A DNA stretch of 64,000 nucleotides from a virus (lineage: Duplodnaviria > Caudoviricetes), in IMG/VR virus record IMGVR_UViG_3300009873_000001. One strand, written 5' to 3'. Within the stretch, counting starts at the first letter, position 1. The number at the start of each line of letters is the position of its first letter. Made by a program: the position numbers and the translations under genes. Under the pieces are notes generated by a model. It was not told the DNA's origin. It did no database searches and saw nothing but the letters and a program-made list of their open reading frames with translations. Shown here piece by piece: positions 2,930 through 58,500 of this stretch.

Positions 2930-2965
2930 CCTAGCTGTCAGTTCGTTTTGATAGATTGTCGCTCG

Positions 2966-3823
2966 GTGAGCGACGCCCAACTCAGAGAAGTAGAGCGAGA
3001 AGTCGAAGCGCTGCCCGAGGCGCTTCAGCGCTATCGCGCGCAGTTGCTCAGGAGCTGCTCGTTCCTGGAGTGCTGGCTGTGCGGCACGCTCGTGCCCGAG
3101 CCGCTCATGTCGGACCACGACAAGGTCTGCAGAGTTCAGTCGTTGCCGAACAGGAATCTTCAAGGACAGCCCTTTGGAACCTTCACCTCGTTTCAACCTG
3201 TTCAGCATGCCCAGCCAGTGTCAGGCGGCCATGTAGTTCCGCAGCCGCGTCAATTTGGCGCCCGGCCGCGACGCGAGCCGCTCTATGACACGGTGTCCTT
3301 TACTGGCAGCATTTGCTGTAGGCCGCGCAAGACGATCTTCTACATTCGCGGCGCGCTCGACAGCACTAGGACAGTTTGTCAGTTTCTTGGGCCAGCCAGA
3401 GACGCAAAGGACTCTTGGCTGACGAACATTCCAGGCAGCGGAACCTGGCTCCCTCCAAGCCATGCGTTCTTCTGGTATCGAACGACATTGGCCCCAGACG
3501 TTGGCCAAGACGTCGGGTCCGTCCTGAGCGTGTGGCGCAACGGGCGGCTTCGATTTCAACACCAACAGACTGAACTGCTCGAATGGCCGTGCATGGCGAT
3601 CATGACCGATCCCAAGTCCCTGCCCAAGCTCGAGACCGGCGAGTTGGTCGGCTTGGCTAGCGTCAGGCCGCGGGCTGACGTCACAATCGCCGGCCAGCCA
3701 GTTCAGATCCACGGGCAGGAGAGGATCGAGTTCGCACTCGACGTGCCGGTGCCGCCGGCCAATCCGGTCAAGTTCACGGTTCTCATGTACGGCATGCACT
3801 TGAGACCGATCGCTGGAGACTAG
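2966..3823 (+). CDS. hypothetical protein: MSD-x-x-LRExER leader, Zn-finger and possible jelly-roll capsid-like C-terminal domain
   Basis: GTG 2966 gives MSDAQLREVERE; CWLC...HDKVC; C-terminal EPLYDT...LTNIPGSGTWLP...F...VLMYGMHLRP with beta-strand pattern. Confidence 0.55.
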   Translation: MSDAQLREVEREVEALPEALQRYRAQLLRSCSFLECWLCGTLVPEPLMSDHDKVCRVQSLPNRNLQGQPFGTFTSFQPVQHAQPVSGGHVVPQPRQFGARPRREPLYDTVSFTGSICCRPRKTIFYIRGALDSTRTVCQFLGPARDAKDSWLTNIPGSGTWLPPSHAFFWYRTTLAPDVGQDVGSVLSVWRNGRLRFQHQQTELLEWPCMAIMTDPKSLPKLETGELVGLASVRPRADVTIAGQPVQIHGQERIEFALDVPVPPANPVKFTVLMYGMHLRPIAGD

Positions 3824-10531: not shown

Positions 10532-11887
<1,356 letters not shown>

Positions 11888-12875: not shown

Positions 12876-12897
12876 CTGAGTAAGGCAAGGAGAGATC

Positions 12898-13809: not shown

Positions 13810-13821
13810 AAGGCGCAGAGT

Positions 13822-16484: not shown

Positions 16485-16490
16485 ACCCGA

Positions 16491-16529: not shown

Positions 16530-16643
16530 CAGATAACTTTGTGATCCAATTGGCTTTGTGGTCAGGGCTGGCCCGCCGTGGAGAATAGGTACTGAAGGCC
16601 GGCAGCCGGCGCGCGCCACGGGCGCAGATGAGGGGAGGCCAGC

Positions 16644-17573: not shown

Positions 17574-17580
17574 GGTCAAC

Positions 17581-18513: not shown

Positions 18514-18516
18514 CGC

Positions 18517-19514: not shown

Positions 19515-20633
19515 GTGTCCTATATCACCTTCCCCCTGCCTCCGGTCCTGGCCGAGCAGTACCAGGAGCCGCTGGCCAGGAACATTGAGGCCGCGCGCGC
19601 TCGCGCGTACTTCAATTCGCTCAAGGCCAGGGCGCAGGCGCAGAAGATCTACGGCTACTCGGACGCGGGCGCGATCTCGAGCCCGAGGGCTCCAGCCGGC
19701 ATGTCCGGGCTGGGCTACGCCGCCGCTGAGGGCGGGCGTTGCGGCAGCAACCTCGCAGACCAGCTCAACAAGCTCGACGTAGCGATCGACATTTCTGACC
19801 CGCGCGAGCTCGTGCGGATCTACACCAAGGTCAACGCCATGGGCTTGCGGTGCGGGAAGGTGCTAGCGCAGCGCCTGCGCGCCCTGCAGGGGCGCGCTGA
19901 CCCGGATCGCAAGGCCGAGCTGTGGACGAGCCTGCTCTACCGGCTCGACGGTATCCGCAAGAAGGTCGAGTTCCGTCTGCAGGGGAGCGGTCTGTCTGGT
20001 ATGGGCTGCTGTGGCGACGGCATGTCCGGGCTCGGCGATTCGGTGCCGATCGACGAGCTGACAGCCTTTCAGCGCGACAGGCAGAACGAGGAGGCGGTGA
20101 ACTACTGGGGCCCCGCCAGCCGCGGCCTCCAGTCCTGGAAGAAGAACCTCCGCCAGGAGGGCGTGCTCGAGGACGCCCGCATGGCAGCCAGGCAGCGCGA
20201 CATGAGAGCCAACGTCGAGCGCGCCATGAGCGAGGAGGAGCGCGCCGAGCTGCAGCGCCTCAAGAGCCAGTGGAAGGCCGTGGGCAAGCAGCTCAGCGCC
20301 GAGGACGCGCAGCGCGCCGACCTGCTCAGACAGCTCACCGATATCGAGCTCCAGAAGCTGGCTCAGAACTCGCCGGACCCGCGCGAGCGCGACATGGCGG
20401 CCATGTTCCTGGCCAAGCGCCGCTACCACGGGCTCTACAAGAAGCTGCGCCGCCAGGCCAACGTCGACTACGCCGCGCCGCGGCCGACTGTGGACGCCGA
20501 GGGGAAGACCTACGTCCTGCGCCCCGGGGTGGAGCAGCGGGCGACCACGCTGCCGGCGATTCAGTTCCCAATCCACCCAGGCAAGGGCGCGGTCATGGAA
20601 ATGCAGGCTGACGGCCTGTTCGGCATTGGCTGA
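19515..20633 (+). CDS. helical putative virion protein with four xxG(L/M/I)G motifs
   Basis: AGGAGG RBS; MSGLG twice, LSGMG, and terminal LFGIG. Confidence 0.75.
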   Translation: MSYITFPLPPVLAEQYQEPLARNIEAARARAYFNSLKARAQAQKIYGYSDAGAISSPRAPAGMSGLGYAAAEGGRCGSNLADQLNKLDVAIDISDPRELVRIYTKVNAMGLRCGKVLAQRLRALQGRADPDRKAELWTSLLYRLDGIRKKVEFRLQGSGLSGMGCCGDGMSGLGDSVPIDELTAFQRDRQNEEAVNYWGPASRGLQSWKKNLRQEGVLEDARMAARQRDMRANVERAMSEEERAELQRLKSQWKAVGKQLSAEDAQRADLLRQLTDIELQKLAQNSPDPRERDMAAMFLAKRRYHGLYKKLRRQANVDYAAPRPTVDAEGKTYVLRPGVEQRATTLPAIQFPIHPGKGAVMEMQADGLFGIG

Positions 20634-20679
20634 GGCGGTGGCTGGTAGCGTCTCGGTCCGAGGCGCATAGCGAGCGCAA

Positions 20680-21597
20680 ATGAGCCAGCTCACCATGCAG
20701 AGCCTCTTCGAGTTCCAGCGCCTGGCTGGCCTCGGGGACGCCCCGCCGCGGCGCCTCTACGCCGGACAGACCGAGTTCGAGACAGACGAGGAGTTCTTCT
20801 GCCGGCAGCGAGCCAAACAGAGAGCCACGCAGCAAGCGACACGGGACTGCAGTCCGGGAGGCAAGGCTTTCTACAAGGGCGCGCCGGTAGGTTCCAAGAT
20901 GTGGAATCAGTGCCTGGCGCAGCGCTCCCAGCTGTACGAGCGCAGGTTCATTGCGGAGTGCGAGCGCGCGGAGGAGCTCGCTGTCACGCAATACTACGAG
21001 ACGCAACAGCGAGTCATGACCGCTGGCGGCAAGGTGCCTTGGAGCGGCCCACGACGGAGAAGGCGAAAGGCAGACGACGAGGAGGGTATGAAGCCGTTCA
21101 CGGGAGGTAAGCTGCCGCCGTCCGGGGTGTGGCCGCTTCCGCCCGTTGAGGGGCCGCCTCCTACGCTCCAGGCCGGATTCACGGTTCAGAAGCAGCCGAC
21201 CGTCATCTTGCCGCTAGCACCTAAGCCAGCGGGCAGCGCGCCGCCCAGGGCCGTGGCGCCGGTCCTGAACATACCTGCAGCGCGGGCTTTCATGCCTGCG
21301 CCGCCTTTGAGTATGCCTGGGCGGGTCATGAGTATGCCTGCGCCCGCCGCGGGCATGCCTACGCGCCAGGCGGTTACCCTCGGCCCGAGGGTCGGCATGG
21401 CCGCGCCAGCCGTCGCCGCGCGCACGGCTGGCGCGCCCGCAGCTCGAACCGCCGGGGCGCGAGCCGGAGTTGCCTTGGGTGCGCTCATGAACCAGTCGCC
21501 GCCCGAGCCGTTCCTGACCGTGCTCAAGTTCACGGTCGGGTTATTTGCGGGATACTGGCTCATGACAGACTTTCTCAAGAAGGGACGTGGCCAGTGA
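20680..21597 (+). CDS. Pro/Ala-rich protein with LAGLG motif and C-terminal TM helix
   Basis: MSQLTM...LAGLG start; C-terminal FLTVLKFTVGLFAGYWLM followed by KK. Confidence 0.7.
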   Translation: MSQLTMQSLFEFQRLAGLGDAPPRRLYAGQTEFETDEEFFCRQRAKQRATQQATRDCSPGGKAFYKGAPVGSKMWNQCLAQRSQLYERRFIAECERAEELAVTQYYETQQRVMTAGGKVPWSGPRRRRRKADDEEGMKPFTGGKLPPSGVWPLPPVEGPPPTLQAGFTVQKQPTVILPLAPKPAGSAPPRAVAPVLNIPAARAFMPAPPLSMPGRVMSMPAPAAGMPTRQAVTLGPRVGMAAPAVAARTAGAPAARTAGARAGVALGALMNQSPPEPFLTVLKFTVGLFAGYWLMTDFLKKGRGQ

Positions 21598-22043
21598 GCC
21601 AGCTCACCATGGACGAGCTGTACAGATTCGCCGGACTAGGGATCTTGCCTCCGCGGCCGATCTTACTGCGCGGGCCGGTCATGCCTGGCCGGACGGTGCC
21701 AGCGTCGTCCCCACGCCCGTTGAAGCCGCCACCCACGACACAACCGCCCCCGCCACCTCCGCCCAAGCCGCCTGACAGGGAGCCATACATGGGCCCAGGG
21801 CCAGGTTCCACCAAGCCGATCCGAGGCGGGTACCGCTACTCCGGCCAGCGCGAGGACGAGACCGAAGGGCAGTTCTTCACCAGAATGCGGGCAGGGCAAC
21901 GAGTCACCCAGCCCACCAGCCGCGACGTGCAGCACTTCACCTGCCCGATCTGCGGCTACAAGCAGATTCCTGCCGGCCTGCAGTACTGCCCGGTCTGCAA
22001 GTCGAGAATGATCTGGCGCACCACCAGAAGAGTCATGCAGTGA
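21594..22043 (+). CDS. Pro-rich paralog with C-terminal Zn ribbon
   Basis: MSQLTM...FAGLG; YSGQREDETEGQFF matches YAGQTEFETDEEFF in the previous gene; CPIC...CPVC. Confidence 0.7.
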   Translation: MSQLTMDELYRFAGLGILPPRPILLRGPVMPGRTVPASSPRPLKPPPTTQPPPPPPPKPPDREPYMGPGPGSTKPIRGGYRYSGQREDETEGQFFTRMRAGQRVTQPTSRDVQHFTCPICGYKQIPAGLQYCPVCKSRMIWRTTRRVMQ

Positions 22044-22774
22044 ACCTCGACGTCGCCAAGATAGCTCCCAAGCTCTGGATCGGCGCAGCTCCACCCCAGG
22101 GCGCCGCTGTGGGCGAAAGCGGGTTTGAGTCGCTCGTCCTGTGCGCCGTGGACTGGCAGCCGCCAGAGGCGCAGTATCCCGGCGTCGAGCTCAAGCGCGC
22201 GCCCTTTCGGGACAAGCCCGACGTGACCAGCGAAGAGATCAAGATCGCCTTCGACGCTGCGCGCTGGACGGCCGAGCGGATCAAGCGCGGTCAGCGCACG
22301 CTCGTGACCTGCATGGCCGGCAAGAACCGGAGCGGGCTCGTATGCGCGCTGGCGCTCTCCATGGCCTCTGGTCTCGACCCGGCCAAGTGCGGCGAGATCG
22401 TGCGTCGGCAGCGCGGGCTCGACGCGCTCAGCAACGCCAGGTTCGTGGACATTCTGAACCAGGCCAGGAACGACGACTGCGAGCTGTGCGCAGCCAAGAA
22501 GCTCACGCCTTGGATCTATGAGGACTCGCTGTGCTGGATAAGTGTCTGTGTGAGTTGCTATCTTCCTCTTGTTGTGCTTAGGCGGCACAGTACCTCTCCA
22601 ACCACAGAGGAGCGCGAGCACATGTTGGGCGGCCTCAAGTTCGTTGCTACGCAGCTTGCGCCTGGCGTCAGGTGGAGAATAGATACTGAGCGGCGGAAGA
22701 TCCCTGATCACTGGCACGCGCACGCGAGAATGGCAGAGAGGCCCGCCCAGCGCTGGGCAGGAGGTAGATCGTGA
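22040..22774 (+). CDS. dual-specificity/PTP-like phosphatase fused to HIT-like domain
   Basis: CX5R(S) loop VTCMAGKNRSG; C-terminal CELC...HWHAH histidine triad. Confidence 0.85.
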   Translation: MNLDVAKIAPKLWIGAAPPQGAAVGESGFESLVLCAVDWQPPEAQYPGVELKRAPFRDKPDVTSEEIKIAFDAARWTAERIKRGQRTLVTCMAGKNRSGLVCALALSMASGLDPAKCGEIVRRQRGLDALSNARFVDILNQARNDDCELCAAKKLTPWIYEDSLCWISVCVSCYLPLVVLRRHSTSPTTEEREHMLGGLKFVATQLAPGVRWRIDTERRKIPDHWHAHARMAERPAQRWAGGRS

Positions 22775-23001
22775 ATCAGGCTGACTTTCTCTATGGCGCC
22801 GGCCTCATGGGTATTCTGGCGGGGATCGGGATTGGCTCGGACAAGGCCAACAAGCTCGCGCTCCTGCTGGGCGGCGCGGCGCTGTTCTTCGCGCACCAGG
22901 AGAAGCCGCTCCTCGACATAGGCGCCAGGCCCGAGCTCGACGAGGCCACTCGAGGGCTGCGACCCAAGATCCCGAGCATTCCGAATCCATTCGCGCAATA
23001 G
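22771..23001 (+). CDS. small two-TM membrane protein
   Basis: Two hydrophobic segments; GTGA overlap; GGAGG RBS. Confidence 0.65.
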   Translation: MNQADFLYGAGLMGILAGIGIGSDKANKLALLLGGAALFFAHQEKPLLDIGARPELDEATRGLRPKIPSIPNPFAQ

Positions 23002-23013
23002 CGCACGGTAGCC

Positions 23014-23292
23014 GTGGCGGCCAAGAAAAAGCCAGAACAGCAGCCACAAGCAGAACAGGCAGGGCAGAACGCCGTGCCTGTGCTGCGGAAGTGCCAAGCC
23101 TTGAACTGCAAGGTCGAGATCGAGGTGCCGAAGCTGTTCTGCGACACGCACTGGACCATGGTCCCAGTCGACATACAGACTGCGCTCTTCGACGCGGTCG
23201 GAGTGGGCGTCCTAGACCTCGTTCGACAAGTCCTAAAGAAAGCGATCAATCTGATTGCGGAATGCGAACGCCAGCAGAGCGGGGCGTCGTAG
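23014..23292 (+). CDS. small Zn-finger protein
   Basis: CQALNC...FCDTHW pattern. Confidence 0.65.
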   Translation: MAAKKKPEQQPQAEQAGQNAVPVLRKCQALNCKVEIEVPKLFCDTHWTMVPVDIQTALFDAVGVGVLDLVRQVLKKAINLIAECERQQSGAS

Positions 23293-23608
23293 GTGAGCCC
23301 GCACCACACCTACTCGCTAAATTCCGGGGACAGCTCCTGCACGAACTGTCACTCGAACTTCGTGCAATCCACGGCGGCCAGCACGGACGTGGTGGTGTTC
23401 CAGAGCCACACCTGCGTGGCCACCGAGAACGTCCGCGTGAACAGGACGCGGGCAGCGAATGACCGTTTTGCGCGCGAGCACGCGGCTCAGTTTGCGAGCG
23501 CCAAGCTGCGCCGCGAGGCCATGCTCGAAGAGGCCAGGAACGCGTTCAGGGACTTCGAGCGGCGGCCGAAGCGCCCGCCGCAGGGCCGGGCTGTTCGTCA
23601 CTCGGCGT

Positions 23609-24217
23609 TCAAGCTGCCGCGGAATTGCCTGCCGGCGGTGGCGCGGGGGCACCACCACCCTGAGCCGCGCCGCCCTGAGCCAGCCCGCCGATCCGGCCGT
23701 CGCGGTTGAGATCGATTCCGGTCAGTTTTTCGAAGGCGTCGATCCTGGCGTTGGTCGCGGCCAGATCACCCTCGGTCTTGGCGTGGCGGTTCGCCGAGCG
23801 CACGCGCTGGTAGGCGATCGTGAGGATCAGGGCCAGCAGCGAGCCGGCCGTGCCCCAGCCCTGGCTCTTGGCCACGTCCTTGAGCTCGTCGAGGTCCTTG
23901 ACGTTCGCGAGCGCCTTGATCTTCTCCTCCAGATCGGCCTTGGCCTTATCGGATTCGACCTGAACCCGCAGGTCGACCGTGTCGAGGAGCGACTGCTTGG
24001 CCAGGCGCACGATCTCGCCCTGGTCGACCTGGCCGTTCCTGTCGTCGTCGGCGAGCGCCTTGAGTTCCGCAAGCGAGAGGCCGCGCTTGTCGAGCTGGTG
24101 ATCGACGGCCTCGCTGATCTTCTGGATCGCCAGCTCCTTGGCGTACTCAGCCGCCGAGTCGCGCAAGGAGGCGCAGCCAACGAGGAGCGGGAGCATCAGG
24201 CAGGCGAGGCGGTTCAT
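23609..24217 (-). CDS. putative lipoprotein with EF-hand-like loops and a TM helix
   Basis: Lipobox LLVGC; DDDRNGQVD and DLNRDGRIG; TM GSLLALILTIAY. Confidence 0.7.
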   Translation of the reverse strand: MNRLACLMLPLLVGCASLRDSAAEYAKELAIQKISEAVDHQLDKRGLSLAELKALADDDRNGQVDQGEIVRLAKQSLLDTVDLRVQVESDKAKADLEEKIKALANVKDLDELKDVAKSQGWGTAGSLLALILTIAYQRVRSANRHAKTEGDLAATNARIDAFEKLTGIDLNRDGRIGGLAQGGAAQGGGAPAPPPAGNSAAA

Positions 24218-24789
24218 ACCACGATTCCGTAGACGTCTACGGTGGCGAGCAGAGCGGTGCCCGAGCTCCCCACCCGGTTGAGGACAAGGGCCTGTGCCGA
24301 CCCGACCTGCACGCTCTTGCCGCTGGGCACGAGCGCGAACACGTCCCCAGCCAGGCGGAAGTTCGTGAGAGTCGTGTTGGGGATCACGTTGAACACGAGC
24401 GGGGTGAGCCCGGCCCCGGCGCTACCGTCCACGGTCACAGCTGTTCCGGTCGTGCATTCGAGCACGATTTCGGTGATCAGGGTGGTTTTGCCGGTGGGTG
24501 ACGTGTACAGGTCGACCGGGCCGCTGTTGAGGAAGCTCACGTTCTCGAGTCGGGTGAGCCGGCTCACGATCGTGCGGTCTTGCTGTGGGTAGGACCGCCC
24601 GCTCACGCTGCGCAGCGGCTGGCTTTCGAGCGAGTTCAGCTGTTCTGACAGGACCTCGCAGGCCGAGAGAATGTTCGTCGGCGCCGCGGTGTCGAACTGC
24701 TCCGAGAGCACCTCGCAGGCCGAGAGGAGGTTCGTGGGAGCCGGCCCGTCGAACTTCTCCGAGAGAACCTCGCAGGCGGAGAGGGGCAT
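24214..24789 (-). CDS. putative structural protein with three N-terminal LSACEVLSE repeats
   Basis: 18-aa unit repeated; C-terminal domain paralogous to 26221-26637. Confidence 0.75.
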   Translation of the reverse strand: MPLSACEVLSEKFDGPAPTNLLSACEVLSEQFDTAAPTNILSACEVLSEQLNSLESQPLRSVSGRSYPQQDRTIVSRLTRLENVSFLNSGPVDLYTSPTGKTTLITEIVLECTTGTAVTVDGSAGAGLTPLVFNVIPNTTLTNFRLAGDVFALVPSGKSVQVGSAQALVLNRVGSSGTALLATVDVYGIVV

Positions 24790-24792
24790 GGT

Positions 24793-26208
24793 TTAGAAGA
24801 CCTCCATGACCATGACGAAGCGGTCGCCGAAGCCCTCACCAGGCAGGGCGGCTGTGACCTCTTGCTCCGTTCCGTCGGCCGGCACGTTGATATTGTCGGT
24901 GCCACCCGAAATCGAGCCCGACGTAGGCGAGGAGAGCGTGGCCAGCGTGACTGGGTACTCGACGTTGGCCATGCCCCAGTAGATCCTGACCGTCACCAGG
25001 CCGCCGCCATAGCAGCGGAACTTCTTCCTGATCGACGCGGCCAGCGGGGTGCCGTTCGTGCCGGTCATTTCGATCTTCTTCTGGCCGGTCGTCCAGAAGC
25101 GCGAACCCTCAGACGTCTTGTCGCTGAGGAGCATGGCGAACGACACGTCACCGCCAGTGTCGTTGGGTGAGCCGGCGGCGCCGATCAGGGTGGCGTTGCC
25201 GTTCCAGATGTACTGGTTCACGGCGGTGCCGGCGGTCGTGCTCGAGGCCCAGTAGAGGTAGATATCCGGCGCTCCGCCAATGTTGGCCTCGGCGTCGATC
25301 AGGAGCGCCTTCCAGTTGCCGTTGACCGTGGCCGGCAGGGTTCCGGCCAGAACCGTGGCCGTAATGTCCGTGCCGGCGAAGGCTGACGTGATTTGGAGGA
25401 TCCTCGAGCCGGTGCCGCTCGACTTGAACGCGAAGTAGAGGTTGTTGTCGCTCGGGTCGATCCAGGCCAGGCCGAAGTTGGTCGTGGCGCCGGCCAGCAC
25501 ACCGCTCGTGAAGACGTTCGTCTCGGTTCCGCCCACGATTCGCGACAGGCGCACCGTGCCGCCGGCAATGTGGGCAATGGAGTAGAGGAACCCGTCCCAC
25601 ACGACCAGGTTCATGGAGCGGTTCGAAGGCCCGTAACCGGGGAGCGTGAAGAACGTAGTCGTGCCCGTGGCAGGGGCGAGGGTGATCACGTTCATGGTGC
25701 CGCCGCTGGTGCTGTACGCTATGTAGAGCGTGTCGCGGTAGGCCGCGGCCGAGTGCCACTCACTGAATCCAGCACCGGCGATCGTGCCCGTTTCGGTCCA
25801 GGTCACGCCGTCCGAGCTGTACGAGAACCGAGGAAGGCCGGTAGTGGAAGAGTAGGCGCAAGCCACCCACGGCACACCCGAGGCGTCATACACAATGAAC
25901 AGCCCGGAGCGCGTCGCCGATCCGGCCACGGAGGCCGTGATCGTGTGGACCAGCGTCCAGGTGGCTCCCGCGTCGTCCGAGCGGTAGATCTGCGAGTTTA
26001 TGAAGAACAGGAAGGTCTCTTCACCGCCGGCTGAGCCGGCAGGTGCGAACATGATCACCCGTTCGCTTGGGTTCGAGGTGCCGGCCGTGTAGGTCTCGAG
26101 CGAGCCGGTCGTGACGCCCTGGTTCGACGGCACGGCGTCGATATAGCGCTGAACCTGCGGCGAGCCGCCGCTCGTGATCCTGGCTCCCAGGAAGGGTGTG
26201 GCTACCAT
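24793..26208 (-). CDS. beta-propeller-like (BNR/Asp-box) putative virion protein
   Basis: RSDDAGATW and SSDGVTW Asp-box motifs; Gly/Thr/Ser-rich. Confidence 0.75.
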   Translation of the reverse strand: MVATPFLGARITSGGSPQVQRYIDAVPSNQGVTTGSLETYTAGTSNPSERVIMFAPAGSAGGEETFLFFINSQIYRSDDAGATWTLVHTITASVAGSATRSGLFIVYDASGVPWVACAYSSTTGLPRFSYSSDGVTWTETGTIAGAGFSEWHSAAAYRDTLYIAYSTSGGTMNVITLAPATGTTTFFTLPGYGPSNRSMNLVVWDGFLYSIAHIAGGTVRLSRIVGGTETNVFTSGVLAGATTNFGLAWIDPSDNNLYFAFKSSGTGSRILQITSAFAGTDITATVLAGTLPATVNGNWKALLIDAEANIGGAPDIYLYWASSTTAGTAVNQYIWNGNATLIGAAGSPNDTGGDVSFAMLLSDKTSEGSRFWTTGQKKIEMTGTNGTPLAASIRKKFRCYGGGLVTVRIYWGMANVEYPVTLATLSSPTSGSISGGTDNINVPADGTEQEVTAALPGEGFGDRFVMVMEVF

Positions 26209-26220
26209 GTTCGACGCTCC

Positions 26221-26637
26221 TTAGAAGAGGAATGCGATCACGCGGGCCGTCACGACCTGCGAGGTGCCGGTCGCCGCGACGTCGATCCCGAGCTTGACCG
26301 CGCTGCCGGCCGGGGCGGTTCTGGCCTTGCCGGTGAGGAAGAAGCTCCACACGTCGCCGGCTGCCAGGAAGCCGGTCAGGGAGACCGGCGAGAAAATGTC
26401 GCTCTCCCCGGCCGCAATGCCGACTCCCGCCGTGGCTGGTGTGATCACGCCAGTAGCAGCCGTGCATTGAAGGATCACGCCCGTGATCACGGCGGTATAG
26501 CCCGTGGGTACGGTGTAGATCGTGGGCGTGGAGATCGCGAACATGCTGATCCCGGGCGTCGCCTCGACCTGGTGCAGAATGTACGGCGCCTGGACTGGAT
26601 ACGACTTGGCCGGAACCGACGCGACGGGGAACGTCAT
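26221..26637 (-). CDS. small beta-sandwich putative structural protein
   Basis: IYTVPTGYTAVIT motif; paralog of the 24214 C-terminus. Confidence 0.75.
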   Translation of the reverse strand: MTFPVASVPAKSYPVQAPYILHQVEATPGISMFAISTPTIYTVPTGYTAVITGVILQCTAATGVITPATAGVGIAAGESDIFSPVSLTGFLAAGDVWSFFLTGKARTAPAGSAVKLGIDVAATGTSQVVTARVIAFLF

Positions 26638-27017
26638 GCCCTGCTCCTCTTCGGCCCGAAGAAGTAGACAGCGAGGCCGCCTACGAAGATCCCGACGGCC
26701 ACGGACTTGAAGTCCAGACCAAACGGCAACTGCGGTCCGGCCTGCCCTAGCCCGAGCAGGCCTTGCTGATTGGCCTGACGGATCCTGTCGAGCTCAGCTT
26801 GGTTGCAAGCCAGCTTCTCGCGCACCATGGCCATGTTGGGCACCGGCCGCTGCTCGGCCTTGACGCGTCGCTTGCGCCGCTTTCGAGGCTGCTGAGCGAG
26901 CATTTGCTCTTCGGACGCGGCTTGGTTCTCTGGCGCCATGGGCACCGGCTCTTGGGCGGCACCGTTCTGGGCGTAGGCTTCCCAGAGTTCTTCAGGTGAC
27001 ATGGTTGGATCGGCCAT
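26634..27017 (-). CDS. small protein with LLGLG motif and C-terminal TM helix
   Basis: Basic patch, GLLGLGQ, then VAVGIFVGGLAVYFF; TAGGAT 6 nt before the ATG. Confidence 0.75.
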   Translation of the reverse strand: MADPTMSPEELWEAYAQNGAAQEPVPMAPENQAASEEQMLAQQPRKRRKRRVKAEQRPVPNMAMVREKLACNQAELDRIRQANQQGLLGLGQAGPQLPFGLDFKSVAVGIFVGGLAVYFFGPKRSRA

Positions 27018-27066
27018 ACACCGATCCTAGCGCGAACGAGGAAACCTGCCGCTTCTCAGGCCTGAC

Positions 27067-28014
27067 TCAACCGCGGCGCATGATCTCGCGCACGAGCGCC
27101 GCGGCCACCGGTGGACAGACAGCGTTTCCGAGCAGCTTCACCGAATCGCAGATCGAGTCCGGCAGCCAGTAGCGGTCTGGGAAGCCCATGCCGCAGCGGT
27201 ACTCGTCGGCCGTCAACATGCGCATTTCGTCGCCGGACTTGCCGCTGCGCACGAGCGCCATTTGGTGCTTGGTGGTCACGGTCGGGAGCGGCCTGTCGAG
27301 AGAACGCCCCGGGTGTCCGGTGACGTGCTGGGTCATGAACATGCCGCGCGGGAATGTCTTTCTGCCCTTGGCAACGCGCGCGCGGACGGCTGGCGGCTTC
27401 GAAGCCACGGGCTCCCAGTTGCCGGCGTTCGAATCGACACAGCTCTTGAAGGCGACGTGCTCGCGGTGGCGCGGGTTCAGGACCAGCGGCTTTCGGCCGC
27501 GGGTCGCCAGTATGAACAGACGCTTTCGGTCCTGCGGCACGCCGAAGTCGGCGGCGTTGAGAACGTGCTCGGAGAGCGAGTAGCCGAGGTCGTTCCAGTA
27601 GCCGCACCAGGCCTTGAAGCCGATCCAGTTCTTGAAGTCGACCACGTTCTCGACCAGCACGAACGGAGGATCGTGGACTTCGGCACAGCTCGGCACGGCC
27701 CAGGCCGTGGCGCGGTATTCGTCGTGGCGCGGAGCCGTGCCGCGGCGCCTGCGCGCGAGCTGCCTGGTCGCGGCCTGGGAGTGGCCCTGGCAAGCGGGAG
27801 ACGCGAGCACTAGGTCCATGCTCGGGACCTCGAACCAGTTGGCCTGGTGCAGATCCTGAACGACGTGCTTGGTCTTGGGGTGGTTTCTCTGGTGAACGTT
27901 GACGGCCAGCGCCCAGTGGTTGGCGGCCCATAGGACTTGAGCACCGGCCTGCTCGGCGCCCTCAGAAAACCCGCCCAGGCCAGCGAACATGTCGATCGCG
28001 GTGAGTTTGCTCAC
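27067..28014 (-). CDS. DNA (cytosine-5)-methyltransferase, phage type
   Basis: Motif I DMFAGLGG, IV SPAC, VI ENV, VIII QDRKRLF, X LGNAVCP; GTGA overlap start. Confidence 0.93.
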   Translation of the reverse strand: MSKLTAIDMFAGLGGFSEGAEQAGAQVLWAANHWALAVNVHQRNHPKTKHVVQDLHQANWFEVPSMDLVLASPACQGHSQAATRQLARRRRGTAPRHDEYRATAWAVPSCAEVHDPPFVLVENVVDFKNWIGFKAWCGYWNDLGYSLSEHVLNAADFGVPQDRKRLFILATRGRKPLVLNPRHREHVAFKSCVDSNAGNWEPVASKPPAVRARVAKGRKTFPRGMFMTQHVTGHPGRSLDRPLPTVTTKHQMALVRSGKSGDEMRMLTADEYRCGMGFPDRYWLPDSICDSVKLLGNAVCPPVAAALVREIMRRG

Positions 28015-28628
28015 GCGCTGATCCCGCTGGCCCAGGGCTGAATGCAGCCGCGCTGCGCGAGCGTCGCCCACACGAGATCCGCGCGCGGCTCGACCAGCGC
28101 TTCCCCATCCAGGTTCAGAGCGCCGTCTCCGTGCAGCTCGAGCGCGCGCATGATCGCCAGGAGCGATTGCCCCACGAGCCAGCCTGAGACCTCTTTGCGT
28201 AGCTGGTCGTAGGCCGCGTCGAGGCTGCCCACACAGCCGGCCATGAGCACGTCATAGAGATCGCTGCTCTTGCCCAGCAACTCCTCTACGTCGACCGTGC
28301 CCTGCCTGAGCCGGCAGTCTCCGTCGAGCACGGGATCGATCAGGATCGTATCCGTGGACGTCGGGTCGAAGAACACGGCGCCGCTGGCTATGTCGAGTGG
28401 ATCGCGGCTGCCGGCCGCCAAGAGGAACCGCCAGTCTTCGCTCCTGATTCCGTCTTCGGTGACTAGGGCTCGCGGCCCTGGTAGCTCCAGCGCGCGCGTG
28501 TCGAGTTCGGTGGCTACCACCACGGGGTCCCGGCCGCGGCGCAGCTGCTCGACACCAAGGTCTGTCAGCTGTACGAGACCGACCCTGGCCCTGTTGTGCG
28601 CGACGCGTTCGAAAAAAGGATGGTTCAT
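28011..28628 (-). CDS. hypothetical protein
   Basis: ATG 28628 (MNHPFFE); coupled to the methyltransferase. Confidence 0.65.
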   Translation of the reverse strand: MNHPFFERVAHNRARVGLVQLTDLGVEQLRRGRDPVVVATELDTRALELPGPRALVTEDGIRSEDWRFLLAAGSRDPLDIASGAVFFDPTSTDTILIDPVLDGDCRLRQGTVDVEELLGKSSDLYDVLMAGCVGSLDAAYDQLRKEVSGWLVGQSLLAIMRALELHGDGALNLDGEALVEPRADLVWATLAQRGCIQPWASGISA

Positions 28629-28644
28629 TCGCTCTAGAGGAGAC

Positions 28645-28867
28645 GAGCCCGAAGGGCTCCGCACTCTTGGGGTGTTGATTGGGGTGAGCGCGACAGCCCT
28701 TCGGGCTCCCATGGCGAAAGAAGGCCAAGGAACGCCCCTGGCACCTCTGATTCTAGACCCTGCTACTGACAGGCGCAGCAAGGCCAGTACAGACCGCAAC
28801 CCCGCCTGGAAGCGGGGTTGCGGCCCGGAGTGTGAATGATCAACCCGACGCCCCACGAGGGCGTCCA
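28645..28867. other. multi-hairpin intergenic element (candidate structured RNA)
   Basis: 14-bp IR 28645-28658 / 28695-28708 with an inner stem; 12-bp hairpin 28794-28823; small hairpin near 28847-28865. Confidence 0.5.
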
Positions 28868-28900
28868 TGGCAGTCTATCAAGAAGCCCGCGCCTGTCGGC

Positions 28901-29197
28901 CTACTCCTCGCGGACGACGCACACGAGGTCGCCCTCGCGGAGGAGAATCAGGTTCTCGTCGTTGACCTTGATATCGGTCCCGGCGTACTTGCTGTAGACC
29001 ACCACGTCGTCCTTCTTCACCGAAACCGGGACTCGCTCGCCGTTCTCTCTCTTGCCTGGCCCGACGGCCAGGATCTGGCCTCTGACCGGCTTTTCCTTGG
29101 CGTTTTCTGGCAGGTGAATGCCGCCCCTGGTCACGCCCGAGTCTTCGATCGGCCTCACCAGCACGCGGTCGTCCAGGGGCTCGACGACGATTCCCAT
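28901..29197 (-). CDS. groES: co-chaperonin GroES (Cpn10)
   Basis: PLDDRVLV, mobile loop TRGGIHLPENAKEKP, AVGPG, YSKYAGT; GAGGAG RBS. Confidence 0.97.
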   Translation of the reverse strand: MGIVVEPLDDRVLVRPIEDSGVTRGGIHLPENAKEKPVRGQILAVGPGKRENGERVPVSVKKDDVVVYSKYAGTDIKVNDENLILLREGDLVCVVREE

Positions 29198-29293
29198 TTT
29201 CTTCTCCTCTCTTTTGATCCGGTAGCAAGCGTTGCAGTGCGGATTCTACCCTGCCTTGGCGACAGCCTGCCAGAGCCTTGGTACGCTTAAAGC

Positions 29294-30031
29294 ATGTCTA
29301 CAGAACTGCCTGAGTCAGACGGTGTGTATCTGAAGTCGATCGCAGAGACGGCCGGATTCGATCCGGTCAGAACCTGGGGCGAAGGCCCGCTGCTGTTGAT
29401 CAAGGCCAGTGAGCCGTGCGGCGAAGCGCCGTTCATGTTCACTACGCCCAAGGACCCCGACCAGGACTTGGATCACGCTTGTCTGATCTCGACGACCAAA
29501 CTGCTCGAGCAGGGCGGCCCGCTGTCCGCGTACCTTTCTCGCCGGGCGGCGGTGCTGCCGATCAGGAAGTCGAAGCGAAACGCCTGGACGGAGATCACGG
29601 TCGGCAGGGCGCGGAACAACGACATTCGCATTTCAGACACAGGCGTGAGCAAGGTTCACGCGTACATCATGCCGCCTCCTGGCTGGCCCATGGTCGACGG
29701 AGAGTGGAAGATTCGCGACTGCTGGAGCACGAACGGCACGTTCATACTCACCGGCTCGGGTCCGGTTACCGTGCCCATGAAAGAGGGCCTCCTGCTCAAG
29801 GCCGGTGTGGAGATCAGGTTCGGCACCGTGGACGCGATCTTCCTCGACCCCGACACGCTCCGGTCGGCACTGGACTACGCCAAACGGCAATGGGATCTGC
29901 TCGACAAAGAAGCGAGCAAGAAACGTTCTTCAGATACAGACTTGCGAAAGCGGATCGCGGATCCCGACGAAACCAAGGCAGACAACAGGCGTCTCGACGA
30001 AAGCGCAGAAGAACTAGATCCATTCGACTAG
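29294..30031 (+). CDS. FHA domain protein
   Basis: TVGR..NNDI....VSKVHA...DCWSTNGT FHA signature. Confidence 0.92.
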   Translation: MSTELPESDGVYLKSIAETAGFDPVRTWGEGPLLLIKASEPCGEAPFMFTTPKDPDQDLDHACLISTTKLLEQGGPLSAYLSRRAAVLPIRKSKRNAWTEITVGRARNNDIRISDTGVSKVHAYIMPPPGWPMVDGEWKIRDCWSTNGTFILTGSGPVTVPMKEGLLLKAGVEIRFGTVDAIFLDPDTLRSALDYAKRQWDLLDKEASKKRSSDTDLRKRIADPDETKADNRRLDESAEELDPFD

Positions 30032-30077
30032 TGGCGCCATTAGTCGAGCGTGGGAAGATAATGAGGACGGAGGCTCT

Positions 30078-31100
30078 ATGTCCTTCCTGACTGCTCCGAC
30101 TTCCAGAGACGTGGCTGTGGCCCGCGGCTTCGGGGGCATGGGCGGCGTGCTTCAAATGGCCGAGCTCGTCCCCTCCTCCGGCGCCTACCCGGCCCCTCCG
30201 AACTGGCCGCCGCCTGTGGGCGTGGCCTATCACGAGCCCGTAGGCAAGAGCACCGGGCTCAGCGACTGGATGGAGCTGTCCGGCATGGGGCAGGGCGGGC
30301 GCGCGGTTCCAGCGCGGCGAATCCGCAACTTCGAGACGGCCAGCGAGCTGGAGGCCTCGCCTGAGGTCTTCGGCCTGGGAGCCGGAGAGGGTCGCGCGGT
30401 GCCGGTGCGCATGCTTCGCCGCGGTGAATTCGAAACGCCGCAGCAGCTCATGAACACGCCCGAGTTCTTCGGCATGGGCGCGCGGCACGGCGTCGTGCGG
30501 CGCCGGCCGGCGGTGTCGAACGGGAACTACCTGGGCGTCGCGCCGCCGTCCGGTCGCCCGGTGCCCGTCAGCTCGCTCGAGCGCGGGGAGTTCGAGACCG
30601 GCGGCCAGCTGGTCTCGACGAGCCGCGTGTTCCCCACGGCACAGCGCCGCCGTCAGAGCCGCTACCGGACCGGCCTGAGCGGACTCGGGCAAGGCTACGC
30701 CGACCCGAACATTCCGCTGCCGAGCTTCTACGCCGATCCCAGCAACGTGCCTCTGCCGGAATACAAGGTCGGCGGCAAGGTCGTGGCCCGCTACGCGGCT
30801 CCGTCCGAGGCCACGGTCAGGACCGCGTACCTCGACCGCCAGGTCGAGCTGCCGGCGTTCTACGAGCACCCGCAGCTCGGCCCGTGGGGCGTCGATCCGC
30901 GGGTGGCGTACCAGTACTGGTGGGCTCAGCAAATGGCCCTGCAGTCGGCGCCGTACGCGACGCCCATGGCGGTGTGGGGTTCGCCCGGCTTCGTGCCCAC
31001 CACGCCAGCGCTGCCAGCGACTCAAGTCGCGCGTCCGGCAGCGTTCGACCCGTACACGAACGCCTTCCCGGTGGCCGGCACGGCAGTCGAGAACTTCTAA
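30078..31100 (+). CDS. repeat protein with multiple G(L/M)G motifs (putative processed virion protein)
   Basis: GGAGG RBS; three GR(A/P)VP...FET...L repeats; FGGMG, LSGMG, VFGLG, FFGMG, LSGLG. Confidence 0.75.
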   Translation: MSFLTAPTSRDVAVARGFGGMGGVLQMAELVPSSGAYPAPPNWPPPVGVAYHEPVGKSTGLSDWMELSGMGQGGRAVPARRIRNFETASELEASPEVFGLGAGEGRAVPVRMLRRGEFETPQQLMNTPEFFGMGARHGVVRRRPAVSNGNYLGVAPPSGRPVPVSSLERGEFETGGQLVSTSRVFPTAQRRRQSRYRTGLSGLGQGYADPNIPLPSFYADPSNVPLPEYKVGGKVVARYAAPSEATVRTAYLDRQVELPAFYEHPQLGPWGVDPRVAYQYWWAQQMALQSAPYATPMAVWGSPGFVPTTPALPATQVARPAAFDPYTNAFPVAGTAVENF

Positions 31101-55547: not shown

Positions 55548-58500
55548 GCACTGAAAGCGAGGACCATGGACGCCAGCTCGCGAGGGCTCACTCTCAGATG
55601 CAGAGCGCGAGGGACGACCTGCGCGAAGTCGAAGGCAAGTTCCTCGAGCTGAGCGGCTGGGAAGAGATCAGCGAGGTTGGTATGTGGCGGCATCCAGACT
55701 TCGCCGTCCAAGGCCAGAGCCCGCACTTCAAGCACTCAAACCCGATCTTCGCGCAAAAGGTCGCCTTGGCCGTAGCCGAGGCGTTCTACGCGGCCGGGCG
55801 AAGGCCCGCAGGCAACAAGGAAGAGGCCAAAGTGAGCCTGAGTTTGCAGGACGAAAGCCTGACCTGTTCGATATGCGGAAACAACATCCCGCCAGGCGCG
55901 GTCAAGATCGCCGTGGACGCACAAAACTTTCGTCACCCGGACGGGTCGCCTTTGTGTCGCCGGACTGCAGCGGCCAAAGAATCCGCTGAGCTAGCCGCAA
56001 CACCCGTAAGGTTCACACCGACGCCTGTGGCTATCGCCAAAGCCAAGTCGCTCTTGGCGGCAGCTCTGGACGAGGCCACGCGCATGGGCGTGGAGGTGCG
56101 CTTTTCCTTCACGACGGTCGGCGGACAGCAGGCCTGGTATCTGGTCAAGGGCGTCGAGGACTTCCACTTTGGAGAGATTCACTAAGATCATGCGGCGCGA
56201 AGTCCTCAGCCGGGAGGCTTGAATGGGCAGGAAGAAGGCACCCAAACGTCAATCCAAGGCGCTTCGGCGTCTATCCAAGCGCGACCGCGCGACCAGCTTC
56301 GGAATCTTCGAACTGGCGTGCAACTCGATCGGGATCTCCATGGTCGACTGGTATCCTGACGAAGTCCGCGAGCCAGCCGTGCGCATGGCGGCCGAAATGG
56401 GCGCCCCGCTCAACCTTCCGGGCCGGTGGTCGTTTCGCCCGGTGACGGCGGCCGACGCAGCCGCGCGGGCCAAGCCCAAGCCTCAGCCCAAGAAGCGGAA
56501 GAAACGAGCAAAGGCATGAAGGAATCCGAAAAGCTAAAGAAAAAGCTCGAGCCAGCGACCCGCCTGGCGCTTGCGTCGCAGAAGGAAATCGAGGGCCTTC
56601 AGCTGCCCTGCTCGCGCCAGGACGAGCCCCGCCACCGTCGCTGCAGGCGGTGCGGCGGCGCTGGCGAGTATACGGGCGGCTACGAGAACGGTGACGTTTA
56701 CTCCTGCTCAAGAACTGAGGACTACAAGGGCCCGTGCGTGCCGGAAGCCATGGAGTCCTGGAACGTCTGCGCTCCGTGCAAGGCGCGCCACGCCGTGGCT
56801 CTCCTGCTCCACGCGCTGGAGTACATCGTCAATGAAGTAGGGGCGCGCGAGCATGAAGCCGAACTGGAAGAACAGCGCCGCCAGCAGGCGGTCGCGCAGG
56901 CCGAGGCTGAGGTCGAACGAGCTCAGTCGGCCCTAGCGAAGGCGCGAGCCAGGCACCAGGAACTGGCCGCTGACGCAGCGAAAGGAAGGCAGCCGTGAGC
57001 GGAGACGAGCTGATCGAAGCGGCAATCGTCATTGCCAACGTCGAATGCAAGGCCGACAAGAGGGGTTGCGGCGGGCCATGGTGTGAGGCCCAGCACAAGA
57101 TCCGTCAGGTTCTGTCAGGAATGGGCGTAGAGTGGCAACCGTCAAAGGACGAACCGACGAAGGCCAAGAATGCCTCTGCCTGACGACAAACCGAACTGGA
57201 AGCTAGAGAACAGCATGTTCAAGCTCGAGTCGGTCGAGGAGCAGTTACTGCGCGAGGTCACGCGACTCAAGCAGGCGCTAGCCTCGGCGCATGAAGCTCT
57301 GCTAGCTTCGGGTCCAGGGGCCAAGAAGGATCGCGCCGTTCAGGCCACGCTGCGCGTCCTCGAACAGGCCAGAAAGGCGTAACCATGAGCGGCGGCGAGT
57401 ACAACTACGCCTACCGGCGCGTCGAGGAGTTCGCGAACCAGATGCTCGTGAGACACTCCGAGATCCGTCACCTGCGGATCGGATTCCACAAGCACCTCCA
57501 GCTCGTCGCGGAAGCCATGCGCGCGATCGAATGGGTGGACTCTGGCGACGGGGCAGATGAAGAGGCCGCGATTCGCGCTTGCTTGCCCAAGAATGTCCCG
57601 TTCGAAGAGGCGCTCGATCTCACCAACAAGACCTTCTACAGAATGTTCGTGGGCGAAACGCGGCTCGGCTTGCCGTCCTGCGTGGTGTGCCTAGACCGAA
57701 TCGACGAAGGCGTGGAGGCCGTGGCGGTCAAAATGGAAGGCGGGTGGGTCCGCTTCCGGCACAAGCAGCCGTGCCAGCTACGCTGCTGGGTGTGCGAGAA
57801 GGAGATCAAAGAAGGCGAGGAGTTCAAGACGATCAACCGCGAGTGGGATCAGGCCCCGCGGCATAAGGCATGCGAGCCGCCAGAGGAAGCCTAGCCCATG
57901 ATCTCCTACACCCAGGTTATGGCCGAGTGCGAGGACAAGAAGGTACTGACAGACCTTCTGCAGAGAGCCGGGCGCGTCGGGAGACTCAGCATGCTGTACG
58001 ACATGGTCACGGTGAGGCCGATCGGCGCAGAAGGTCCGCCTGGCCTCAAACTGACCGGCAGCGTCTATGCGAAGGTAGTGGAGCTGGAGAGGATCGTGCG
58101 CTGGGTCAATGGAGGCGCCTTATGACCACCAGCGTCCGCCCCTCCGAGAACGACTACGCGCGGCAGTTCTTTGAGCTGTACTGCAAGGTCATGGGTGAGC
58201 TGGACAAGCTTGCCGAGCTGGCCAGCTACAACGAGGTCTTTCCGCACCTCGACGAGATCTATTCGCCCGACCGGCACCGCATGGAGTACTTCTTCCACGG
58301 GCTCCTCGGCCTGCTCGATCAGTCCTGGCGGGTCGAAGATCCGTCCTTCTGGCGGGACTACGAGCGGTCAAACTCGCTCATGAGCAGGCTGATCGCCTAC
58401 GGGCGCGAGTGCTTTCAGGAGCACAAGGGCCTGAGCGACGCCCGCTACACGGCTCATGACTTCGAGGTACCCAAAGAGAGCAAGGAGCAGCCATGAGCGC

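Follow-up and report, generated by a model that had tools for sequence, protein, structure and literature searches.

A short linear motif of the general form hydrophobic-x-G-L/M-G (hxG[LM]G, most commonly L/M-S-G-L/M-G) is present, specifically enriched and positionally conserved in a lineage of very large virus-like elements (190-273 kb) that had not been described before. We analysed a stretch of 64 kb, here called the window, from one such genome, a contig of 273,580 bp of which about 200 kb was left unread. One lineage member was binned with a MAG titled Deltaproteobacteria, and the host appears to be bacterial. The shell appears to be built from jelly-roll proteins of the PRD1/adenovirus type, unlike in all known jumbo phages, and the motif may be a site of protein processing or docking in what would be a new type of giant bacterial virus without a tail. 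Tentatively, we favour the reading that it is a functional motif of a giant PRD1/STIV-type lineage, most likely representing the processing sites of a virus cysteine protease.

Enrichment of the motif

A first-pass annotation of the window had listed 12 occurrences in five proteins, all of which (12/12) we found, and had proposed a count against shuffled controls, which bears the enrichment out. With within-protein shuffles as the null, the loose form [MLFVI]xG[LMI]G occurs 18 times in the window where 4.7-5.2 sites are expected (z 6.7), and it is spread over 11 proteins, compared with an expected 4.9. The strict form [LMF][SGA]G[LM]G occurs 10 times, the expectation being 0.7 and the highest count in 200 shuffles 3; it is found in 6 proteins (0.7 expected). 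A distant relative of 190 kb, C66, contains 39 loose sites against 14 expected and 17 strict sites against 1.6 expected; hxG[LM]G is 4-14x over-represented in both. In an unrelated control contig of the same MAG (contig C39), no enrichment was detected (loose, 22 against 22; strict, 5 against 2.5 expected). Only G-[LM]-G is enriched: replacement of either Gly by Ala or Ser, or another residue between the Gly pair, gives no excess. Sixteen of the 39 C66 sites fall at 17-43 kb, and a 41-kb module of a relative holds 18 sites against 5 expected, with several of its small tail-anchored proteins starting with the motif or carrying it near their N-terminus.

Three further loose matches in the window have unrelated explanations. 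VWGLG lies within a kinase domain, LAGIG in a hydrophobic Gly-rich stretch of ORF 22771, and FAGLG in the Gly-rich N-terminal stretch of a C5 DNA methyltransferase (27067..28071, minus strand), which we take to be the SAM-binding motif I of these enzymes, and which we left outside the motif system for this reason.

Motif-bearing proteins of the window

One of the five is a 372-aa protein without a family match (19515..20633, plus strand), which starts with MSYIT and contains MSGLG at residue 63 (19701-19715), LSGMG at residue 160 (19992-20006), a second MSGLG at residue 170 (20022-20036) and LFGIG at residues 368-372 (20616-20630). On the same strand follow two proteins with paralogous leaders. 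In the 305-aa protein (20680..21597), the leader starts with MSQLTMQSL and closes with LAGLG at residue 15 (20722-20736), ahead of a middle part rich in Pro and Ala and a C-terminal hydrophobic segment followed by KKGRGQ. The 149-aa protein (21594..22043) has the leader MSQLTMDELYR-FAGLG, with FAGLG at residue 12 (21627-21641), followed by a Pro-rich linker and a CxxC...CxxC finger. The next gene encodes a dual-specificity phosphatase (22040..22774, plus strand) conserved in the relatives C66 and L035. A tail-anchored protein of 127 aa (26634..27017, minus strand) carries LLGLG at residue 87 (26745-26759), 12 residues ahead of a hydrophobic helix (residues 99-117) and a basic KRSRA end.

A 340-aa repeat protein (30078..31100, plus strand) starts with MSFLT and contains five motifs: FGGMG at residue 18 (from 30129), LSGMG at residue 67 (30276), VFGLG at residue 97 (30366), FFGMG at residue 130 (30465) and LSGLG at residue 200 (30675). 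Three of the five close repeats of about 35 aa; the five sites sit in internal repeats and are not independent counts. Fourteen homologues conserve the C-terminal domain (residues ~240-340). The gene adjoins that of a GroES/Cpn10 co-chaperonin (28901..29197, minus strand in the window) in 4 of the 5 lineage genomes examined, and a gene for an FHA-domain protein (29294..30031, plus strand) lies between the two, as it does in C66. A further strict site, LSGMG (57112..57126, plus strand), is found in a 62-aa ORF (56995-57183).

Conserved placement: possible processing or docking sites

The motif had been described as following N-terminal leaders, separating repeats and preceding a membrane anchor, and this placement holds. 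Its position is kept in orthologues at 26-50% identity despite divergent flanks, namely in N-terminal leaders, at the ends of ~35-aa repeats and in the C-terminal tail of a capsid-like protein. In the family of the repeat protein, the motif stands at repeat ends in 15 homologues. A 263-aa protein encoded after the double jelly-roll genes has G[LM]G near residue 30-40 in both orthologues, and a tail hxGLG-x(1-9)-GEW(E/G)x(I/L) forms the extreme C-terminus of 11 members of the double jelly-roll family, including P0068 of the window's own genome. The motif occupies exposed, non-globular places: the ends of leaders of 12-35 aa, repeat ends, pre-anchor segments and the flexible tail of a capsid-like protein.

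In the reading that we favour, a virus-encoded cysteine protease would cut at the motif during particle assembly, trimming leaders and tails and dividing repeat arrays. The candidate cutter is a transglutaminase-like Cys-His-Asp protein at the head of a morphogenesis module that would be of the PRD1/STIV type (double jelly-roll, internal membrane) and not of the tailed-phage type.

It is also possible, if somewhat doubtful, that the motif stays uncut and acts as a docking or assembly peptide which, singly or as multivalent repeats, binds one common partner, such as a chaperone, a membrane protein or the inside of the jelly-roll lattice, and recruits proteins into the particle, in a role like that of capsid-targeting or cargo-loading peptides. 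In the repeat protein family, whole 35-aa units are conserved, beyond GLG, in 2 to 8 copies, as avidity would predict. Two proteins, ORF 19515 (LFGIG) and C66 179548 (IAGLG), end exactly with the motif; because a cut before the last Gly would remove a single residue there, they are more easily explained by cleavage behind this Gly or by a motif that serves for binding. Members of the double jelly-roll family conserve the sequence GEWEAI after the motif, and the transglutaminase-like protein closes with a similar EWE ending; together these suggest a docking peptide. No protease of proven specificity was found. Against docking, the short N-terminal leaders closed by the motif resemble propeptides, the acidic/hydrophobic spacing ahead of it (D-W/F-x-x-L-S-G) is like that of double-glycine leaders recognised by proteases, and a papain-fold enzyme heads the module.

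A jelly-roll module and the nature of the putative particle

The window's own genome and two other relatives of 190-245 kb have one module in common. It contains about ten tail-anchored membrane proteins, a single and two tandem double jelly-roll proteins and a gene with a cysteine-protease fold, the last seen only in the relatives; the run of membrane proteins lies ahead of the single jelly-roll gene. A search for a jelly-roll capsid protein outside the window, suggested by the first-pass annotation, yielded a candidate: the double jelly-roll member P0068 is encoded 13.3 kb upstream. The double jelly-roll model has a pLDDT >90 over residues 52-380 and matches the capsid protein of STIV (Z 11.3), P3 of PRD1 (10.3) and the capsid proteins of PBCV-1 (9.9) and PM2 (8.8). 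A trimer was predicted with an ipSAE of 0.88 against 0.00 for the best of 3 controls, with runs sharing at least 91% of contacts and a partner pLDDT of at least 84. In calibration, 20 of 30 solved pairs and 1 of 23 single chains reached this mark, and resemblance to double jelly-roll trimers of known structure may explain the result. Both the jelly-roll folds and the trimer are predictions made with high model confidence. The single jelly-roll protein (212 aa) is 88.6% identical between relatives, neighbouring genes reaching 31-55%, and in fold it comes closest to SPV1 (Z 7.4), HHIV-2 (7.0) and a PBCV-1 capsid chain (6.8). Within the window, a 291-aa protein (2948..3823, plus strand) combines an N-terminal leader and a Cys/His finger with a divergent copy of this domain.

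The module resembles those of the prokaryotic internal-membrane viruses, the Tectiviridae (PRD1), Turriviridae (STIV) and Corticoviridae (PM2), in its double jelly-roll with a core of ~330 aa (Z 8.8-11.3), its predicted cyclic trimer, the adjacent single jelly-roll protein and the cluster of small membrane proteins. Collagen-like proteins encoded downstream may be analogous to the PRD1 spike protein P5. It differs from these families in genome size (190-273 kb against ~10-20 kb), in having two tandem double jelly-roll paralogues and a single jelly-roll as the most conserved gene, and in its protease-fold gene and proteome-wide motif; moreover, no FtsK-type packaging ATPase was detected. The proposal of a large membrane-containing tailless virus gains independent support from the jelly-roll module, the membrane proteins and the lack of detectable tailed-virus hallmarks. 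Against it, neither C66 nor the 41-kb module yielded a packaging ATPase of the FtsK/A32 type.

That the genome belongs to a tailed jumbo phage, with head, portal and terminase genes too divergent or located in the unread 200 kb, jelly-rolls serving as fibres, decoration or enzymes, and a motif reflecting a Gly-rich linker habit, seems unlikely to us. In its favour, every phage above 200 kb characterised so far has, as far as we know, a tail, and GroES genes are known from T4-like phages. Most ESM Atlas neighbours are labelled Uroviricota. Cellular double jelly-roll proteins of the GH172/DUF2961 group (Z 10.6-10.9), as well as PHM and PNGase F, match the model as strongly as capsid proteins do. 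The collagen-like proteins match PHROG tail-fibre families, but through their collagen repeats only. Pfam or PHROGs searches with ~85 window proteins gave no recognisable head or tail genes, in agreement with the first-pass annotation. On C66, six Pfam hallmarks (PF05065, PF03237, PF03354, PF17289, PF04860, PF04984), covering the HK97 capsid protein, portal, terminase and sheath, had no match, while prophages of the same MAG were detected on C23, C91 and C39; PHROGs placed none of 134 C66 proteins in a head, portal, terminase, sheath or tube family. The lineage is also absent from IMG/VR, the conservation of the single jelly-roll, the predicted trimer and the membrane-protein run fit a capsid module, and a linker habit alone would not hold L/M between two invariant Gly.

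It is quite improbable that the lineage is a giant plasmid-like or integrative element reusing cellular-type double jelly-rolls, with the motif directing export or processing of secreted proteins like a double-glycine leader. Integrases, transposases and ParB are encoded on C66, where one protein has a canonical double-glycine leader (MGLLSMNDLGELRGG) at its start, and the failure to detect a packaging ATPase would also fit. However, the matches include no conjugation or replication-plasmid families, C66 has no C39 peptidase, small ORFs with capsid-type folds form a long co-directional block, and of 401 genomes sampled from the phylum, one was found to have the family.

Candidate protease and known cleavage systems

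The motif had originally been likened to the adenain consensus, (M/L/I)xGx-G and (M/L/I)xGG-x. This analogy stands in part: in formal terms the type-1 sites include hxG[LM]G, the predicted capsid is of the adenovirus structural lineage, and the sites follow N-terminal leaders or, in a capsid-associated protein, precede a short C-terminal peptide that is conserved, recalling adenovirus pVI and its pVIc peptide. Clan CE maturation proteases are used by eukaryotic double jelly-roll viruses (adenoviruses, virophages, ASFV and poxviruses). Nevertheless, it is very improbable that an adenain/Ulp1-type enzyme encoded elsewhere in the genome cleaves these sites. Type-2 sites show no enrichment (z 1.1 and -0.8), and the same is true of type-1 sites that have a different residue at P1 (z 1.1 and 0.1), P1 being only L/M. 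Across the whole MAG of the relative, its 190-kb contig included, PF00770 and PF02902 (Peptidase_C5 and C48) had no match at E-values up to 1. The window proteins matched no protease family, in line with the earlier remark that the protease is not visible there. The host is apparently bacterial, and we know of no characterised bacterial double jelly-roll virus with a clan CE maturation protease.

The sole protease-fold gene of the module, seen in relatives only, encodes a 258-aa protein. We rejected it as a clan CE enzyme since its fold is transglutaminase-like (clan CA). It matches Pfam Transglut_core with an E-value of 2.7e-4 and 21.6 bits, just below the curated cut-off of 23, and Transglut_core clusters in the ESM Atlas with a feature score of 0.94 and a TM of 0.88. 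By our reading of the sequence, Cys, His and Asp follow the order of a Cys-His-Asp triad, as in transglutaminase-like cysteine proteinases such as LapG (Peptidase_C93), which cuts at a small-residue motif (Ala-Ala). Unlike these, it falls just under the family threshold, and it could alternatively be a cross-linking enzyme or a cell-wall hydrolase.

The candidate shares the papain fold and clan CA with C39 peptidase domains. In leaders such as MSQLTMDELYRFAGL-G, a cut before the last Gly would place an acidic residue at -8, hydrophobic ones at -7 and -4 and a Gly at -2, a spacing shared by DW(M/L)xLSG(L/M)G and resembling that of C39 double-glycine leaders. In contrast to the latter, the -1 residue would be L/M, not Gly, Ala or Ser, motifs also occur internally and at C-termini, and no C39 domain or ABC exporter was found on C66. 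The C66 orthologue of the candidate protease contains an intein inserted directly before the putative triad Cys.

The motif is enriched in the window and in its relatives

All 12 motif sites that the first-pass annotation had placed in five ORFs of the window (those starting at 19515, 20680, 21594, 26634 and 30078) were recovered at their places when these ORFs were translated. Genes in the window, which has a GC content of 64%, were called by GC3 (0.72-0.90 in real frames), and the null model for motif counts was the shuffling of each protein, with 200 shuffles for the strict pattern. Of the loose pattern, [MLFVI]xG[LMI]G, the window has 18 sites against about 5 expected (z 6.7), and of the strict pattern, [LMF][SGA]G[LM]G, it has 10 against 0.7 expected, the maximum among the 200 shuffles being 3. 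These within-protein shuffles, a control that the annotation had proposed, also reveal enrichment in C66, the sole relative in the genome collection, a contig of 190,544 bp, from a MAG titled 'Deltaproteobacteria bacterium', that we analysed in full and regard as distant because only about 11 proteins are common to it and the window at the BLASTP level. C66 has 39 loose sites (14 expected) and 17 strict ones (1.6 expected), and 62 kb from three more relatives have 19 motif sites (6.6 expected). No enrichment (22 versus 22) was found in C39, an unrelated 205-kb contig from that MAG, equal in GC; it carries a terminase and was restricted to the role of control because it has no protein in common with the window.

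Among the variants scored, hxG[LM]G is the only site form enriched (z 5.2 and 7.5), and the enrichment is gone with Ala or Ser for either Gly or with a middle residue other than Leu or Met. The annotation had likened the motif to sites of adenain, the adenovirus protease. The likeness holds for site form only, the motif fitting (M/L/I)xGx-G; usage of type-2 sites is not borne out (z 1.1 and -0.8), z is 1.1 and 0.1 for type-1 sites in which P1 is another residue, and no clan CE protease was matched in the MAG of C66. Some matches were set aside as unrelated to the motif system: the FAGLG of a C5 methyltransferase, which lies in a Gly-rich N-terminal stretch, a loose match in a kinase domain and another in a Gly-rich hydrophobic stretch.

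In the product of ORF 30078 and its 14 homologues, a conserved C-terminal domain lies behind 2-8 repeats of about 35 aa and each repeat closes with F-x-G-[LM]-G. No relative of this protein was found in IMG/VR. Its gene adjoins that of GroES in four members of the lineage (the window, C66 and the relatives L033 and L035). The order GroES, (FHA), GLG-repeat protein is kept in four members (28901-31100 in the window), and a DUF6884 gene lies near this locus in three relatives (the C66 segment L001, L033 and L035).

Predicted capsid proteins

In the motif-rich block of C66 (17-43 kb), two genes in tandem encode paralogues, of 546 and 566 aa, that belong to a double jelly-roll family for which an exhaustive search gave 47 representatives. 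The family has no Pfam match, and a profile search of PDB chains found no relative among PDB sequences. One member, P0068, lies 13,297 nt upstream of the window on the 273,580-bp JGI contig, that is, in the same genome. The AlphaFold model of a family member is a double jelly roll, with pLDDT >90 over residues 52-380. Aligned with VIA-align, it matches the capsid protein of STIV (Z 11.3, 236 aa, 4.3 A), P3 of PRD1/PR772 (Z 10.3-10.4, about 250 aa for PRD1), Vp54 of PBCV-1 (Z 9.9) and P2 of PM2 (Z 8.8); cellular double jelly-roll proteins match equally, namely GH172/DUF2961 (Z 10.6-10.9) as well as PHM and PNGase F. When three copies of the core are modelled together, the prediction is a cyclic trimer, the form of a pseudo-hexameric capsomer (ipSAE 0.88 versus 0.00 for the best control), in which jelly roll 2 of one copy packs against jelly roll 1 of the next, with at least 91% of contacts agreeing between runs and pLDDT of at least 84. 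In calibration, 20 of 30 solved pairs and one of 23 single chains attained the mark that this trimer passes, and the pass may be partly owed to likeness to solved double jelly-roll trimers. By these models the family would supply the major capsid protein, of double jelly-roll type, a fold on which cellular proteins score equally.

A 212-aa protein, possibly a penton or minor capsid protein, accompanies this pair. Its sequence identity between relatives is 88.6%, where their other proteins reach 31-55%; its family comprises 83 database clusters and was found in one of 401 sampled genomes of the presumed host's phylum. Its predicted fold is a single jelly roll (pLDDT 84.7), and the best fold matches are capsid proteins from membrane-containing viruses, all middling (Z <8): SPV1 (7.4), HHIV-2 (7.0), a PBCV-1 capsid chain (6.8) and HCIV-1 (6.1). 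The window itself holds a divergent copy, within ORF 2948-3823, for which a homology search returned two close homologues only and the ESM Atlas nothing informative.

Gene order around the jelly-roll genes

In the gene map of the window's phage (Logan assembly, run SRR6032603), proteins of 624, 212, 460, 450 and 244 aa follow one another, and the same order is seen on two further contigs, the JGI contig Ga0180437_10000053, of 245 kb, and one of 72 kb from Logan. The conserved order is a large membrane protein, the 212-aa protein, two double jelly-roll genes, a 263-aa protein and small beta proteins. Relatives carry a Mom/LAGLIDADG gene between the 212-aa gene and the double jelly-roll genes; at L039:6799-8376, in one relative, and at 22719-24389 of C66, its product is Mom-like and has a LAGLIDADG_3 domain as an insertion. 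This gene is missing from that place in the map of the window's own phage.

On the 72-kb contig these genes belong to one co-directional block, which starts with a 258-aa protein and then a 638-aa protein. Next, still upstream of the putative capsid genes, comes a run of about ten small proteins, each with a single hydrophobic helix at the C-terminus; several of them have the motif at the start or near the N-terminus, and the product of window ORF 26634 is likewise tail-anchored. The block continues with four larger proteins, the membrane protein (with DFLELSGMG), the jelly-roll genes and two long collagen proteins. Motif sites in the block number 18 against 5 expected.

The first-pass annotation had seen no recognisable head-tail genes in the window, and sequence profiles bear this out: searches of about 85 window proteins with Pfam and PHROGs found no capsid, portal, terminase, tail or protease family, the 'tail fibre' PHROG matches being to collagen repeats only. 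PHROGs likewise gave no HK97 capsid, portal or large terminase among 134 proteins of C66 and 50 of the window. In the MAG of C66, profiles for HK97 capsid, portal and terminase (PF05065, PF04860, PF03237, PF03354, PF17289) match the contigs C23, C91 and C39 only and never C66, and a sheath profile has no match on C66; the same searches detected ordinary prophages on other contigs of this MAG. In these genomes, which may be incomplete, the FtsK/A32-type packaging ATPase profiles PF04665 and PF01580 are without match on C66, and no Walker A was found in the proteins of the 41-kb module except a chance match in the transglutaminase-like protein described below.

A transglutaminase-like protein heads the block

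As to the maturation protease, the annotation had looked to an adenain/Ulp1-like enzyme. Of this clan CE type, Peptidase_C5 (PF00770) and C48 (PF02902) have no match anywhere in the MAG of C66, even with E allowed to reach 1, in a lineage most of whose proteins escape HMMs. A gene of another protease fold, Transglut_core, is present in the relatives. A profile search for Peptidase C39 gave nothing on C66, the region 4319-6115 of C66 was dropped on inspection as a clan CE-like protease, and a hunt with a Q...CG regular expression left no convincing candidate.

The sole protease-fold gene found, of clan CA, is that of the 258-aa protein heading the block (L058:308-1084, in a relative). It matches Pfam Transglut_core with E 2.7e-4 at 21.6 bits, the cut-off being 23, and in the ESM Atlas its feature score is 0.94, with 180-183 features in common and a TM of 0.88 across 184 residues; a sequence search against PDB chains found nothing. 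Cys168, His203 and Asp222 are ordered like a catalytic triad, as read from the sequence. We assign to this protein, in the relatives only, the Transglut_core fold with a putative Cys-His-Asp triad. Clan CA includes double-glycine leader peptidases.

The orthologue in C66 (L006:398-2353 on the minus strand, equal to C66 40398-42353) is split by an insert of some 320 aa that immediately precedes the putative catalytic Cys. The insert starts with CFVQGTQV (CFV...G-T-x-V), contains a LAGLIDADG-like motif and ends in VHQ|C; it resembles an intein that carries a homing endonuclease. Inteins favour functionally critical sites.

The transglutaminase-like protein ends in ...REWEA (...PEWENG in C66) and the second double jelly-roll paralogue in ...GEWEA(I/L), and this EWE ending is possibly a C-terminal tag common to the two.

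Cleavage site or docking peptide

Our tentative reading, in which we place somewhat less than even confidence, is that the motif is a putative cleavage site: leader ends and repeat ends at the motif would be cut by the product of the protease-fold gene. The leader-like positions, the repeat-end positions and the presence of that gene argue for cutting. A putative role as a docking peptide, which we hold to be a little less likely, is favoured by other features: the motif forms the exact C-terminus of two proteins, the tail that follows it, GEW(E/G)x(I/L), is itself conserved in 11 double jelly-roll members, and the protease-like protein has a similar EWE ending.

Cleavage would also agree with a resemblance that we infer between the motif leaders and double-glycine leaders: MSQLTMDELYRFAGL-G and D-W/F-x-x-L-S-G-L/M-G here have the same spacing as the latter if cut before the last Gly: position -8 is then acidic, -7 and -4 are hydrophobic and -2 is Gly. 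A protein encoded at L012:16436-17410 on the minus strand (C66 176436-177410) starts with MGLLSMNDLGELRGG, a canonical double-glycine-type leader.

A possible lineage of jumbo tailless viruses

The jelly-roll module, known here from genes and models, is like that of PRD1, STIV and PM2. The present lineage differs from these viruses in a genome more than ten times larger, in two double jelly-roll paralogues and in a proteome-wide motif. To our knowledge, characterised phages above 200 kb are all tailed and characterised prokaryotic double jelly-roll viruses are all small. Reviews give Preplasmiviricota genomes below 50 kb (PMC11071308). We found no account of this lineage or its accessions in the literature.

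It is conceivable, if on balance improbable, that the window represents the first lineage known of double jelly-roll (Varidnaviria) viruses of bacteria that are jumbo (190-273 kb), tailless and membrane-containing, with virion maturation or assembly via a lineage-specific hxG[LM]G code read by the transglutaminase-like cysteine protease. If so, genome gigantism in the PRD1/adenovirus capsid lineage would have arisen in bacteria as well as in eukaryotes, and a 270-kb bacterial virus of this plan would be relevant to how giant viruses originated. As an experimental handle, the motif predicts virion components and the places where these would be cut or docked. Standard pipelines for virus detection seem to overlook the lineage, as no relative was found in IMG/VR, and more such genomes may therefore hide in metagenomes.

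The host appears to be a member of the Deltaproteobacteria, according to MAG binning, a second NCBI MAG record so named and the gene style.

Other genes of the window

The window is a 64-kb piece of the 273,580-bp contig, and its gene organisation is prokaryotic, with small, closely spaced genes, start-stop overlaps in 19 of 97 neighbouring pairs and SD-like words at twice the background. Few families were recognised with Pfam and PHROGs among its roughly 85 proteins: sugar and methyl transferases, a Ser/Thr kinase, an FHA domain, a dual-specificity phosphatase, two C5 methyltransferases, GroES, an HTH and collagen repeats, together with a DNA polymerase exonuclease subunit matched in PHROGs.

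Behind a collagen-like protein (10922-11887), six paralogous Gly/Ala/Thr-rich proteins of 303-323 aa are encoded at 11925-19461 on the plus strand, the array being interrupted by a 690-aa Ser/Thr kinase on the opposite strand (14790-16862). They have no family match and no relative among PDB sequences, and were rejected as relatives of the single jelly-roll protein, to which they have no profile similarity.

On the minus strand at 24214-26637, genes of 191, 471 and 138 aa have in common a C-terminal beta domain of about 100 aa, which L033 has in five genes in a row; three LSACEVLSE-type repeats open the 191-aa protein. Several unrelated proteins between 2114 and 63815 have in common a charged helix at the N-terminus (M-S/A-D-x-x-L-R-E...), which is visible in the alignment of ORF 2948-3823 with its homologues. 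Finally, the Pfam domain fvmX5 (FtsH ternary system domain X5) is matched, with E 3e-25, in one of the 63 window proteins aligned.
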